A DNA stretch of 64,000 nt from Dehalococcoidia bacterium (GTDB taxonomy: Bacteria; Chloroflexota; Dehalococcoidia; Plut-88900), in NCBI GenBank assembly GCA_965197585.1, contig OZ240215.1:1504001-1568000 (forward strand), in the 5' to 3' direction. The stretch's first letter is position 1. Each line of letters opens with the position of its first letter. Both the position numbers and the translations under genes were made by a program. A model generated the notes under the pieces. The model worked only from the letters and a program-made list of their open reading frames with translations. It was not told where the DNA came from and did no database searches. Positions 19,185 through 38,124 of this stretch are shown piece after piece.

Positions 19185-19210
19185 CTCCGACCACTAATAA
19201 TGAGGTGAAT

Positions 19211-19783
19211 ATGTCAAATCAAAGCGCCACAGGCATTCCCGTAATGGACCCCAGAGGCGAGACTCCAGCCGCGAGTGTGTCAATGGCCCTCCGTCTCCCG
19301 AGCCTCGACGGCGTGACCCTCGGCCTGGTCGATAACACCAAGATCAATGCCGGCAAACTACTGGATCGGCTTTCTTCCCTCCTCGAAGAGGAAGCCCCGA
19401 ATGCCCGCATAGTCCGGTTCTCCAAGCCCGATGCCACCCGCCCCGCTCCCCCCAACCTGGTCAAGCAGATCACCGAGGAGTGCGACGCAGCAGTCCTCGC
19501 CATCGGGGACTGAGGCTCCTGCAGCCAGTGCAGTTTGCACGACGGTATAGAATTGGAGATGAACGGCATCCCGACTGCCGTAATAATCACCGAGGAGTTC
19601 GAGGTTCCCGCCAGGACCATCGCCCGCATGAGAGGAATACCGGACTACCTCTACGCCAAGGTGGGCCACCCCATCGGGAGCCTGAATGAGCATGCCCTTC
19701 TGGAAAGAGCCAGGTCGGCGTTGCCCCAGGTGCTTAGCATCCTCACCCGAGACCCAAGTCAAAGAAATGGACGGAAGCAATAG
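19211..19783 (+). CDS. UGSC-family selenoprotein (Sec at TGA 19511-19513, codon 101)
   Basis: AIGD-TGA-GSCSQCSLHDGIELE..GIPTA is one continuous frame joining ORFs 19205..19513 and 19535..19783; hairpin gtgca-gtt-tgcac at +15..+27. Confidence 0.88.
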
Positions 19784-32059: not shown

Positions 32060-33541
32060 CTAGTCTTTGAGTTCTAGGGTCGTGACACTGCCCGTCGAAA
32101 GGGTAGCAACCCTGATTGCGTGATTGTTCGTGTCGGCAATGTACATCTTGCCGTTCGCAATGGCCAAACCTTCCGGCTCATAGAAGAGGGCCGCTCTGGC
32201 GGGTCCGTCCTCGAACCCCGTGTCCCCCAGCCCCGTGAAGCTCACGACAGCCTGGGTTAGAGGCTCGATCCGCTTGATCTTGTTGTTGTAGGTGTCCGTC
32301 ACGTACAGCATCCCCTCGTGCCAGCACACACCCTGCACGTGCTGAAGAAGTGCCCTGTCCCCGACTCCATCCTTGTCCCCGAAGTCGAACAGGCCCGTTC
32401 CCACAACCGTGCTCACCTTCCCCGATTCTCCTCGAGTTGCCGTGCGCACTGCGCTAGTCTCACTGTCCGCGAAGTAGATCGTATCGCCGTCAGTGTCTAT
32501 TCCCGTCGGCTGGGCCAGCATAGCGTTGCGGAGAGACCCATCCTTGATGCCCTCCCTGCCGCTTCCGGCAAATGGTCCCACGTACCCGGACTCCAGGTGC
32601 ATCACCCAAAGCTGGTGGAACCCCGCCATAGCGATGTAGAGCATCCCGTCCAGGCAGGTCAGGTCCCACGGCGAGTTCAAGGCTACCGACCCCACACCCC
32701 CATCGTGGAACATCCGCGCCTGCTCACCCGTCCCGGCTATCGTCTCCACCCGACGCTCCCGCAGGTCTATGCGACGGATGGCGTGGTTCTCCGTATCAGC
32801 CACGTACAAACTGTCGCCCGACAGGGTCAGACCATGAGGATGGTGGAATTTCGCATCGGCGTATTCACCATCCTCCAGCCCCACGTCCCCACCCCCGATC
32901 ACGTCCAAGATCTTCCCATCCAGGGAAATCGAGAGCACTCGGTTGTGGTTGGAGTCAGACACGAAAAGCCGAGACCCCTTCTCATCGGCGATGATCTTGC
33001 TCGGGAACGAGAGCGTTCCGCCCTCCTCCTTGTGCGCCGAAAGCCCTGGTATCGGGGTTCGGTCCAGCGTACCCCTCGCCTCAAACTCGGTAATCATGTC
33101 CCGGATCACCCTGTCGAAAGCATCGAAGGTAATCTCCCCCTCGTGCCTTCCCAAAATGTTCCCCTCAGGGTCGACCACGTAAAGCGTCGGCCAAGCCCTC
33201 GCTGAGTACTGGCTCCACACCCGGAAGTCCTTGTCGTTCACCACCGGGTGCTCCAGCTCGAATCGCCGGATCGCCTTCTCGATGTTGGCTGTGTCCTTCT
33301 CTGAGGTGAATTTGGCAGAGTGGACGCCCACCACCACCAGCTCCTCCTGGTATTTCTCTTCAAGTTTCCGCAACTGCGGAAATATGTGCATGCAGTTAAC
33401 TCAGCAGTATGTCCAGAAGTCCAGGATGACTATCTTGCCCTTCAGGTCCTCCATGCTCAAAGGGCGCTCGACGTTCAGCCAGTCGATGTCCCTCGGAAAA
33501 TCCGGGGCCTTTACGCTGCCTACCATAGTCTGTTGTGCCAT
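32060..33541 (-). CDS. Thioredoxin-like plus NHL-repeat protein (NHLRC2-like), probable selenoprotein (Sec at codon 47, TGA 33403-33401)
   Basis: [16 protein letters not shown]...[27 protein letters not shown] is in frame with ORF 32060..33391; the family motif is DFWTYCCINC; GAGGAG RBS before ATG 33541. Confidence 0.88.
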
Positions 33542-34572: not shown

Positions 34573-34660
34573 GCCTCACCTCCTGTTAGCTAGGTTCCTC
34601 CGTCGACCCGTTCACCCCAGTGCAACTACATTATCCCCTTTACGTGATGTACACAGCAAA

Positions 34661-34966
34661 TCACACTCTTTCCCTAGTCGCGACCCGCGACCTCGCTCTC
34701 TCAATCAGCCGACCACTCAAATACTTGTGAATCACGCTGGAAAGCAGTGTCTGATACGGGATACCTTCCTCCCTCGCCCGAGCATGGGCCAGATTGAAGT
34801 CGCGCTCCGTCACCCGAAGATTCACCCTTTTGGTCTTGTTGAACGTATTTCGTGCGGCCTCTCGGGCCCATTGTATTTCCTTCTCCTCATTGGCAACGGG
34901 CCGCAACTCTCCCCGCTCAAATCGCTCTAGTATGTCAAGCTCTTCTTCAGTCATTCTGTCCTTCAT
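34661..34966 (-). CDS. Antitoxin (BrnA/CopG-like)
   Basis: K.RVNLR, A..EGIPYQTL.SSV.HKY; overlaps the toxin gene. Confidence 0.85.
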   Translation of the reverse strand: MKDRMTEEELDILERFERGELRPVANEEKEIQWAREAARNTFNKTKRVNLRVTERDFNLAHARAREEGIPYQTLLSSVIHKYLSGRLIERARSRVATRERV

Positions 34967-35247
34967 TTTGTCCTCCTCCTTCGCCTTCTCGTCTCCCTGC
35001 TACTAGGGATTATCGTTTTAAGGAACGCACTCCCATCTTCTTGTCTCACAAATGGCACTAGATAAACATGCGCGTTCATTTCAACAACGTAGATTTGTTG
35101 CCCAGGATATCGAGCCTGGTTCGGGTGGTCCCGCACTGCCAATTGACCACCCAGTTCTAATGATGACACGATATGCTCGAATGATACTCCCCTCTGCTCG
35201 ATTAGTTGTTGATTCTTTTCTTCGTTCCATTCAAACCCTGAGTGCAT
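34963..35247 (-). CDS. BrnT-like type II toxin
   Basis: FEWNEEKNQQL..QRGVSFE, HPNQ.RYP.Q, LVPFV, FLKTIIPS. Confidence 0.85.
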   Translation of the reverse strand: MHSGFEWNEEKNQQLIEQRGVSFEHIVSSLELGGQLAVRDHPNQARYPGQQIYVVEMNAHVYLVPFVRQEDGSAFLKTIIPSSRETRRRRRRTK

Positions 35248-35385: not shown

Positions 35386-36558
35386 CTACCCCAGATACTC
35401 CAGCGCCGCCTCCGTCATCACTTTCAACCCGACCTCCAGCGCCCGCTCATCGAAACCAAACGTCCCGCTGTGATGGGGCCCGTATCCCCCCTCCTCATCC
35501 CCACCCCCGACAATGAAGTAGCACCCAGGCACTTCCTTCTGGAAGTAGGCCATGTCATCGCCGCCCATTGATGGTTCGCAGTCGATTACGTTTTCAGCTC
35601 CAATGGCCCGAGTCGCGGCACTGCGGACCAGGGCCGTCATTGCGGGTTCGTTCATGACCACCGGGCTCTGATAAATGTCCTCGAACGTGTACGACGCTCC
35701 CGCCGCGGCCGTAATACCGCTCAGCACTTCTTCAATACGACCCATAACCCTGTCCCGCGTCCCGTCATCAAAGGCCCGCACCGTGCCCTTTAGCTCGACC
35801 TCCTCAGGGATTATGTTGAACGCCGTCCCGCCCCTAATCATCCCGATGCTCAGCACCGCCGCTTCCAGGGCCCCTACGTTCCGACCCACTATCTGATGTA
35901 GCGCACTCACTGTCTGCCCCGCGACCAATATCGGGTCGATCAACGACTCCGGGTGGGCCGCGTGACCGCCGGTCCCCTGGATTCTGATTGTGAACTCGTC
36001 CACGCTGGCAAACATGCCCCCCACCCTAACCCCCACCCTGCCGGCTTCAAGCCCATTGATGATGTGAAGGGCCAGGGCCGCATCGACTTTCGGGTCCTCC
36101 AGCGCGCCCGACTCTATCATCCCCAGGGCCCCGCCCGCGGTCTCCTCCGCCGGCTGGAAAGCGAACTTAACGTTCCTCTTAAGCTTTCCCCTCATCCCCG
36201 CCAACACCGACGCCACTGACATAGCCACGGCTACGTGTCCGTCGTGGCCTCAGGCATGCATCTTCCCCGGCTCACGAGAGCAATAGTCCGCATCGTTGTC
36301 CTCCTCGACAGGCAAAGCGTCCATGTCCGCCCTAATGAGCAACGTCTTCCCACCCGACCCCCCTCTCAGCAGTCCTGTAACCCCCGTACCCCCCACCCCA
36401 GTCTTCACCTCCAGCCCCAGTTCCCTTAACCCATCTGCCACCATCCCCGCCGTCCTCTCCTCCTCGAAAGACAACTCCGGGTGGCTGTGAATGTCCCTCC
36501 GAAGTGCCACCATTGAGGGTATAACTTTCTCGTATGCGTGGCTCAGGTCTAGCGTCAT
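35386..36558 (-). CDS. M20D (Acy1/HipO/IAA-amino-acid hydrolase-like) amidohydrolase, probable selenoprotein (Sec at codon 103, TGA 36252-36250)
   Basis: RRDIHSHPELSFEE, RADMDALP, GKMHA-TGA-GHDGH, FQPAEE, GGHAA.P, PHH in one frame joining ORFs 36250..36594 and 35386..36228; AGGAG RBS before ATG 36558. Confidence 0.82.
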
Positions 36559-37434: not shown

Positions 37435-37464
37435 GGGCCCGCCGAATGGCGGGCCCTTTCTTTT
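37435..37464 (+). terminator. Rho-independent terminator
   Basis: gggcccgcc-gaat-ggcgggccc followed by tttctttt. Confidence 0.88.
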
Positions 37465-37517
37465 GATTGTGCATTAGTGTTATATTGGCATCATACCGCA
37501 GTCAAAAAGGAGTTACA

Positions 37518-37760
37518 ATGGCTGTAAATCTCTCCATTAGAGAAGTTCCCGACGATTGGGCTGAAAAGCTGAAAGAAAGGGCAAGGCGCAACCACCGCTC
37601 GCAGCAGGGAGAACTGCTTGCAATACTTGAAGAAGCCCTCAGACCCGGACGCCTATCTATAGAAGAGGTTCACCAAAAGATTCAAAGTATGCATTTACGC
37701 ACACCCGATGAATCTACCCAATGGATAAGGGAAGATCGAGATGCCGGGTATAGTAGCTGA
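37518..37760 (+). CDS. FitA/Arc-like RHH antitoxin
   Basis: NLSIREVPD...LKERARRNHRS.QGEL..ILEEA; AAGGAG RBS. Confidence 0.88.
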   Translation: MAVNLSIREVPDDWAEKLKERARRNHRSQQGELLAILEEALRPGRLSIEEVHQKIQSMHLRTPDESTQWIREDRDAGYSS

Positions 37761-38124
37761 TGCATCCGTCCTAGCCGCAATTGCCTTCGGAGAACCCAAT
37801 AGGTTGCAAGCACTTGCCCTCGTATCGGGCCATGAGATTCATGCTCCGTCCCTCATGGCATTTGAGATGGCCAACATTGCTTGGAAGAAGATTCTTAGAA
37901 ACCCTTCTCAACATCTGACTACATCAAAAGGGCTAGATGCGATGCTCAGCGGAGCTATCTATTGGACTAAAGTGGACTTCAATAAGACCCTCGAATTAGC
38001 CCTCGAGACTGGACTGACCGCCTACGACGCCAGTTGCCTCTACCTGGCTCAGACCCTCGGCATGCCGATAGCCACCTTCGACAGGAAATTGAGCTCCACA
38101 GCCCAGGCCCGAGGCATCTTCTAG
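37741..38124 (+). CDS. vapC: VapC PIN-domain toxin
   Basis: VADAS, E.AN, LTAYDA.., ATFDRKL; overlaps the antitoxin gene. Confidence 0.88.
   Translation: MPGIVADASVLAAIAFGEPNRLQALALVSGHEIHAPSLMAFEMANIAWKKILRNPSQHLTTSKGLDAMLSGAIYWTKVDFNKTLELALETGLTAYDASCLYLAQTLGMPIATFDRKLSSTAQARGIF

Follow-up and report, generated by a model that had tools for sequence, protein, structure and literature searches.

A predicted selenocysteine form of an M20D amidohydrolase in Dehalococcoidia

Nearly all known selenoproteins use selenocysteine (Sec) for redox chemistry, and the choice of Sec over Cys is still debated. A stretch of 64,000 nucleotides (nt) from a Dehalococcoidia bacterium (assembly GCA_965197585.1, contig OZ240215.1, positions 1,504,001 to 1,568,000), here called the window and used for all coordinates below unless another contig is named, contains a gene of the M20D amidohydrolase subfamily in which TGA stands in place of a conserved metal-ligating Cys codon. 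Is this gene interrupted by a nonsense mutation, or does it encode a hydrolase with Sec among its metal ligands? An initial annotation, made from the letters alone, had favoured Sec recoding and named as checks independent genomes with TGA at this codon, purifying selection on both sides of it, read-level evidence and the presence of Sec machinery. We consider it highly probable that UGA 103 of this gene is recoded as Sec with the help of a hairpin resembling a selenocysteine insertion sequence (SECIS), and that the Sec belongs to the dimetal site.

An M20D gene with TGA at a metal-ligand codon

The gene and the codon in question are as follows.

35386..36558, minus strand: the M20D amidohydrolase gene, with 390 codons, a stop codon and one internal in-frame TGA, assigned by translation, Pfam, TIGR01891 and the match to 1YSJ
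36250..36252, minus strand: TGA codon 103, the proposed Sec codon, aligned with the Cys of MHACGHD; TGA in 19 genomes, Cys in five of five solved relatives

In the minus-strand translation of 36558..35386, codon 103 stands in the context ATG CAT GCC TGA GGC CAC GAC, which is exactly the codon string of the initial annotation. Its statement that both gene halves are intact and in frame was also borne out: the 390-codon translation contained no stop or frameshift besides this TGA. Open reading frame (ORF) calling with translation table 11 breaks the gene into ORFs of 114 and 280 amino acids (aa).

When the TGA was read as Cys, the protein scored 350.9 bits against the M20D amidohydrolase subfamily model TIGR01891 of NCBIfam (cut-off 153.75), and Pfam detected PF01546 (Peptidase_M20; 1.5e-43, 149.5 bits against 24.6) and the inserted dimerisation domain PF07687 (2.4e-13, 50.4 bits against 21). 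Its score against the CpsA carboxypeptidase equivalog NF040868 was 364.1 bits, below the cut-off of 500. The nearest solved structures were YxeP (1YSJ, 1.4e-76, residues 15-386), 4EWT (2.1e-70) and ILL2 (1XMB, 3.3e-68), with CsAga (6SLF, 2.2e-46) and 3IO1 as further solved relatives, and U103 aligned to the Cys of MHACGHD in all five. Sequence identity to these solved M20D structures fixes the M20D fold of the predicted protein. The gene departs from the family at the Cys of MHACGHD; if the TGA is read as Sec, a chalcogen ligand would be preserved, with selenium in place of sulfur, and we class the gene as the Sec variant of an M20D enzyme. No second M20D copy or Cys paralogue was found in the genome at E ≤ 1e-10, the gene being the sole match.

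H101, H105, D106, E138, E139, H165 and H363 did not vary in an alignment of 46 rows, of which 18 are Sec and 28 Cys; among them are the following putative active-site residues.

36244..36246, minus strand: codon of His105, which is the H of the metal-binding pair U-x-H, a probable ligand by comparison with plant His139 in the available passages of PMC8149794
36142..36147, minus strand: Glu138-Glu139 codons, presumed in M20 enzymes to act as general base and metal ligand, roles given in part by PMC10699109 and the available passages of PMC8149794
36064..36066, minus strand: His165 codon, putative metal ligand by homology
35470..35472, minus strand: His363 codon, which we take to be a metal ligand of M20D enzymes

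Available passages of PMC11511702 and PMC8149794 describe the conserved Cys of M20D enzymes as ligating or bridging the two metals. According to those of PMC8149794, the Cys of a plant ILR1 homologue is held to coordinate metal together with His139, Glu172/173 and His197, and in PpILR1 the exchange Cys137Ser in MHACGHD, for which the mutagenic primer encodes H-A-S-G-H-D, abolishes hydrolysis. From homology, Sec103 would be expected to ligate the dimetal centre as a selenolate. The Staphylococcus aureus protein Sapep was considered as another M20D enzyme with a Cys ligand and dropped, since the available part of PMC2937973 describes a 55-kDa PepV-like dipeptidase with cysteines outside the active site.

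Conservation of the TGA and its exchange with Cys

Among the 40 nearest genomes, the orthologues in the window's own family (f1) had exactly one internal TGA in all eight genus-mates and in one sister genus (68% identity), and two further genomes of the family in this sample gave no orthologue match. The TGA fell into one shared column of the codon alignment in nine of nine full-length sequences of the family. A class-wide sample of 401 Dehalococcoidia genomes, 86 of them with a match at E ≤ 1e-60, added TGA at the same codon in seven genomes of genus g77 (family f34) and two of genus g118 (family f64), whose Sec forms are 45-52% identical to the window protein; six other genomes of f34, from five other genera, have TGC there. 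In total, 19 species genomes of Dehalococcoidia, spread over three families and with 45-96% amino-acid identity, have TGA at this codon, and the independent genomes called for by the initial annotation exist: the window's own family contributes 10, and two other families contribute 9. Eighteen of the 19 genes are free of further stops or frameshifts.

A GTDB scan with one genome per species yielded 69 loci, of which nine had TGA (the same Dehalococcoidia), 58 had a Cys codon and two were partial. In a phylum-wide sample (401 genomes, 201 with a match), no other TGA was seen among the 150 matches listed, with 91 more unlisted. A metagenome scan whose peptide patterns reach close relatives only, and which may omit records near the window, gave 80 loci and no further Sec form: 76 had Cys, three were partial without the motif, and one (L170) had Cys together with a spurious off-frame match. 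U is aligned with C in 58 genome loci, 76 metagenome loci and five of five relatives in the PDB. Unpublished genomes (G243, G706, G435, G556, G643 and G604) entered only the tallies of the class-wide and phylum-wide samples and lists of genes with no internal stop, and no claim about Sec uses them.

The ratio of nonsynonymous to synonymous substitution (dN/dS), computed by the Nei-Gojobori method separately before and after the TGA, was low in all three clades. It ranged from 0.045 to 0.121 downstream and from 0.071 to 0.470 upstream in 36 pairs of f1 (dS up to above 2), from 0.04 to 0.16 downstream and from 0.04 to 0.22 upstream in 21 pairs of g77 (dS up to above 2), and was 0.085 downstream and 0.152 upstream in the single pair of g118 (dS 1.15 downstream). 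Purifying selection thus acts on both sides of the TGA, as the initial annotation would have it, and is at least as strong downstream as upstream. The TGA is beyond chance, because 19 species have kept it in one and the same alignment column while synonymous sites elsewhere are saturated. At the level of reads, contigs from runs X1, X3 and X5, belonging to three studies, span the TGA and keep it, all listed differences falling elsewhere; one of the runs spanning it may be the window's own source sample. A fourth run, X9 (depth 2), showed two differences whose positions are not listed. No run recorded as RNA contains the gene stretch, which is uninformative either way on transcription.

A quick IQ-TREE analysis of 46 homologues, unrooted so that gains and losses are indistinguishable, recovered three Sec clades, each fully supported. 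The Sec clade of g77 is nested within Cys-type sequences of its own family (support 99*). The tree requires three state changes, and the starred branches alone force at least two. The approximately unbiased (AU) test rejected the best tree uniting all Sec rows (difference in log-likelihood 46.3, p 0.005). Since a single Sec clade is rejected, Cys and Sec were swapped at this one codon at least twice in Dehalococcoidia.

A candidate SECIS hairpin and the decoding machinery

The initial annotation had noted a GU-loop hairpin after the TGA, and the consensus that RNAalifold gave for 10 orthologues is the same structure: a 7-base-pair (bp) upper stem closing a CGUG loop 20 nt after the UGA. Two features were defined here.

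36208..36244, minus strand: candidate bacterial SECIS hairpin, with a 5-bp lower stem, a short middle stem, a 7-bp upper stem (36236..36219) and the loop CGUG (36229..36226)
36222..36237, minus strand: longest invariant nucleotide run of the gene in nine orthologues, 16 nt, at +13 to +28 after the TGA, taking in four-fold degenerate sites

In the same nine orthologues, the next longest invariant run of the whole gene has 8 nt and spans the TGA itself. At degenerate positions where the amino acid is invariant, the codon was also invariant in six of nine cases in codons 104-113 and in 16 of 202 elsewhere (Fisher p 4.5e-5), and codons 104-109, between the TGA and a GTG at 36228, are conserved in protein and in nucleotides. 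The segment after the TGA is thus constrained at the RNA level. In g77 and g118, the sequences after the TGA are quite different, yet each has a stable hairpin at a similar distance; its loop, GGUCCUG (or variants) in g77 and GGUC in g118, again contains GU. This comparison between clades is a stronger argument for a SECIS-like element than covariation within a clade.

The genome, a single contig of 3.43 Mb, encodes SelB (369.6 bits), SelA (542.7), SelD (385.4) and tRNA-Sec (65.8), each above its curated cut-off, so the machinery on which recoding would depend, and which the initial annotation had listed, is present. For the other Sec lineages, five genomes were tested, and SelB exceeded its cut-off in all five. 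Two observations on these genes may be added. The SelD gene itself (L013, G000:C1:3357253-3358176, minus strand) has one in-frame TGA and is of the Sec type. In both genomes of g118, only about 5-7 kb of one contig separate selB from the Sec-type M20D gene: selB is at 510-1610 with the M20D gene at 8518-9639 on contig C37 of G221, and at 32321-33484 with the M20D gene at 38690-39844 on contig C19 of G163.

The two other Sec-type TGAs that the initial annotation saw nearby belong to the following genes of the window.

19205..19783, plus strand: UGSC-family selenoprotein gene, TGA at 19511-19513, motif D-U-G-S-C; NF041046 148.1 bits against 125, PF24696 4e-54
33541..32060, minus strand: gene for a thioredoxin-like (PF13905/AhpC-TSA) and NHL-repeat protein, TGA at 33401-33403, motif C-U-V-N-C

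The former has a small hairpin with a GUU/AGUUU loop about 19 nt downstream of its TGA; in the latter, a clean hairpin of 7 bp with the loop AGUU follows 25 nt downstream of the UGA, and table 11 calls only the 443-aa part of this gene after the TGA. According to the main text of the BSepDB paper (PMC13326102), two Dehalococcoidia metagenome-assembled genomes are among the ten most selenoprotein-rich bacteria.

We propose that the gene would yield a full-length M20D amidohydrolase or carboxypeptidase (ILR1/YxeP/CpsA-like), with UGA 103 decoded as Sec by the organism's own SelA, SelB, SelD and tRNA-Sec. The signal for decoding would be a stem-loop that begins a few nucleotides past the UGA and has its GU-containing apical loop about 20 nt downstream. 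Sec would then take the place of the conserved Cys of MHACGHD, a ligand described as bridging two catalytic divalent metal ions, and amide bonds would be hydrolysed with a selenolate instead of a thiolate in the dimetal centre. As a speculation, the selenolate, fully deprotonated and a softer donor, might bring altered metal affinity or preference, or reversible oxidation of the ligand.

Several points weigh against this proposal. The folding energy of the hairpin is ordinary for its composition (single-sequence z-scores of -0.52 and -0.48). The two accepted selenoprotein genes of the window, with loops AGUU and GUU, have hairpin z-scores of +0.60 and -1.01; because they also score as ordinary, the value does not count against the M20D hairpin, and single-sequence folding was rejected as a non-discriminating SECIS test. 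Within the window's clade, 92.7% of the cells of the hairpin are paired and covariation is weak: there is one compensatory pair, which is broken in two of ten sequences, and shuffles attain values as high as those observed. Another hairpin, immediately downstream of the UGA, likewise shows 100% compatibility. Covariation in this clade gives no conclusion, since the sequences are too conserved and both hairpins are compatible with them.

A second set of reservations concerns the hairpin detector. The bSECISearch criteria reportedly ask for an apical loop with G or GU at about 16-37 nt from the UGA; our detector asked for at least six contiguous pairs, for a loop 3-10 nt long in which one of the two leading positions is G, and for a distance of 16-37 nt downstream of the codon. 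Counting distinct segments, it found such a hairpin at a folding free energy of -6.5 kcal/mol or below in 18 of 18 Sec segments and 17 of 113 Cys segments, and in 16 of 18 and 3 of 113 when GU in the loop was added; this threshold was chosen after the -6.7 of the window hairpin had been seen, and at the pre-set threshold of -7.5 the contrast was 9 of 18 to 12 of 113. The 18 Sec segments represent only three independent clades. A scan of the window with Rfam at gathering thresholds returned one tRNA only, and no inference on SECIS was drawn from Rfam.

Two further reservations concern the gene and its ligand. The gene of one genus-mate (G002), the tenth genome of the family, is split by a frameshift in its assembly, with the same TGA kept. 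This orthologue (L051 / L034 + L041) is found in two overlapping frames, one for query residues 1-181 and the other for 176-390, and its locus has one base less than those of the relatives, by an assembly frameshift error or in a real pseudogene. As for the ligand, the passages available from reviews give the bridging Cys without a residue number, and we infer from the alignment that it is the MHACGHD Cys of 6SLF. Sec insertion and read-through of the UGA are likewise inferred, and ligation of the metals by selenium would follow by homology.

Alternatives, known relatives and genomic setting

It is also conceivable, though improbable, that UGA 103 is recoded mostly with Cys or another residue, through Cys-tRNA(Sec) delivered by SelB when selenium is scarce or through near-cognate read-through, and that the UGA serves mainly to throttle expression according to selenium or SelB rather than to bring selenium to the metal site. 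This reading would fit the conserved TGA, the hairpin and purifying selection just as well, and 113 distinct homologous segments work with Cys there. Against it, the genomes retain a complete Sec pathway including a Sec-type SelD, a mere throttle could occupy any codon, and at least two exchanges of Cys and Sec exactly at a ligand codon are the usual signature of functional Sec/Cys pairs.

We regard as very unlikely a split gene, in which UGA 103 ends a first product and the GTG at 36228 starts a second one of 280 residues, the two pieces cooperating or only one being used. The table 11 ORF for such a product exists (36228..35386, 280 aa), and purifying selection on both parts would not by itself exclude two polypeptides. 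Such a split, however, would cut the motif as MHA|C|GHD and remove the Cys equivalent, His105 and Asp106 from both products despite their invariance in all 46 rows; codons 104-109, which lie between the TGA and this GTG, are conserved in protein and nucleotides, and the break falls exactly at the Cys codon in three clades.

That the TGA is a nonsense change from TGC, or an assembly error, in a dead gene has a negligible probability: a single change, counted as a transition in our analysis, turns TGC or TGT into TGA, and the G002 assembly is frameshifted in this gene, but the TGA is kept in 19 species genomes at saturated synonymous divergence (dS above 1), downstream dN/dS is 0.04-0.16 with 18 of 19 genes lacking further stops or frameshifts, contigs of three studies retain the TGA, and the orthologues' identity of 45-96% excludes misassembled copies of one sequence. 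The pseudogene reading is refuted by TGA conservation, purifying selection and the invariant active site; the preference of the initial annotation for Sec recoding over a nonsense mutation gains support from every check that it named, namely the 19 genomes, the purifying selection on both sides, the Sec machinery and the contigs of three studies.

Returning to a Sec-containing M20D enzyme, such a protein appears to be new. Table 1 of a May 2026 review of the prokaryotic selenoproteome (PMC13188914), an inventory of 119 families and subfamilies which the review describes as the most comprehensive, has no entry for M20, PF01546 or TIGR01891, and a term search of the review found no mention of M20, peptidase, amidohydrolase or hydrolase. 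None of these terms occurs in the main text of the BSepDB paper (111 families; PMC13326102), its family list being in the supplementary Table S2. Full-text searches for selenoproteins or selenocysteine in connection with M20-type enzymes or Dehalococcoidia yielded no paper on such a protein, one match, on Campylobacter avium (PMC5658510), being irrelevant, and none of the 25 NCBIfam matches of the M20D protein was a selenoprotein model. The initial annotation had placed the family outside the described selenoproteins that it knew, in agreement with Table 1 of the review and these searches. We conclude that this is a real and apparently undescribed selenoprotein family that would use the standard recoding route, and that its distinguishing points are Sec in a non-redox dimetal hydrolase and a recurrent Cys/Sec switch.

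The closest known systems are Cys-type M20D enzymes: YxeP (1YSJ), ILL2 (1XMB), the S. aureus M20 peptidase 4EWT, CsAga of C. striatum (6SLF) and CpsA (NF040868). They share PF01546 with PF07687, TIGR01891 and the motif M-H-A-x-G-H-D with the window protein, and they have the Glu-Glu pair and the His residues in common with it, so that the same hydrolytic dimetal chemistry would be expected; the difference is that the metal-ligating Cys is here encoded by UGA, predicted to be Sec, and followed by a SECIS-like hairpin. FdhA (Mo/W-Se) and the [NiFeSe] hydrogenases (Ni-Se) likewise have Sec in place of a Cys that coordinates a catalytic metal (PMC13188914), but these are redox enzymes with a redox-active metal, whereas the M20D protein would be a non-redox hydrolase in which the ligand is described as bridging two ions. 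The UshA-like selenoproteins (NF041198, NF049981) and a CTP-synthase C-terminal-related selenoprotein (Table 1 of PMC13188914) are likewise computational predictions outside the thioredoxin-fold oxidoreductases and rest on the same type of evidence, namely a Sec/Cys pair, a SECIS and Sec machinery; they have different folds and families, and none belongs to PF01546 or TIGR01891. The YgeY 'selenium metabolism-linked' hydrolase (NF009555) is also of the M20 family and tied to selenium biology in a table row of PMC2276186. In contrast to the window protein, however, its link to selenium is only by neighbourhood with selenium-dependent molybdenum hydroxylases, and it is not listed as containing Sec; the window protein scored 21.8 bits against this model, for which the cut-off is 321.

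We lean, with reserve, towards the broader view that this is the first natural metallohydrolase with a selenolate ligand, probably bridging, of a dinuclear hydrolytic centre, and that the form was gained or exchanged at least twice, each time with its own SECIS hairpin. If so, the repeated use of Sec would imply a selective advantage of selenium over sulfur in a non-redox active site, for example in metal preference or affinity, or in protecting the ligand from irreversible oxidation or from sulfide chemistry. The family would offer a Sec/Cys pair of natural origin in a dimetal hydrolase that is non-redox, well understood and already represented by crystal structures, and close Cys and Sec forms within one class, with at least two switches, would make a clean system for studying selenium as a metal ligand with regard to metal selectivity, Lewis acidity and oxidation tolerance. 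Search sets for selenoproteins gain a family whose gene is otherwise truncated by gene callers, and SECIS models could be improved with three distinct Dehalococcoidia examples.

The M20D gene appears to stand alone, and its neighbours allow no inference about the substrate. Downstream on the same strand, two small ORFs without a Pfam match at 1e-5 are followed by a gene for a BNR/Sortilin-repeat protein. Upstream and divergent lies a gene of the IscA/HesB type for Fe-S biogenesis (PF01521; 37059-37400, plus strand), here of the Cys form, and after it comes a PIN-domain gene; HesB-like proteins elsewhere are a known selenoprotein family (Table 1 of PMC13188914). Small gene pairs flank the M20D gene on both sides, namely the two overlapping ORFs at 34640-35247 (minus strand), without a Pfam match at 1e-5, and the PIN-domain gene (PF01850) preceded by a short ORF at 37446-38124 (plus strand). 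Both pairs look like modules of the toxin-antitoxin type.

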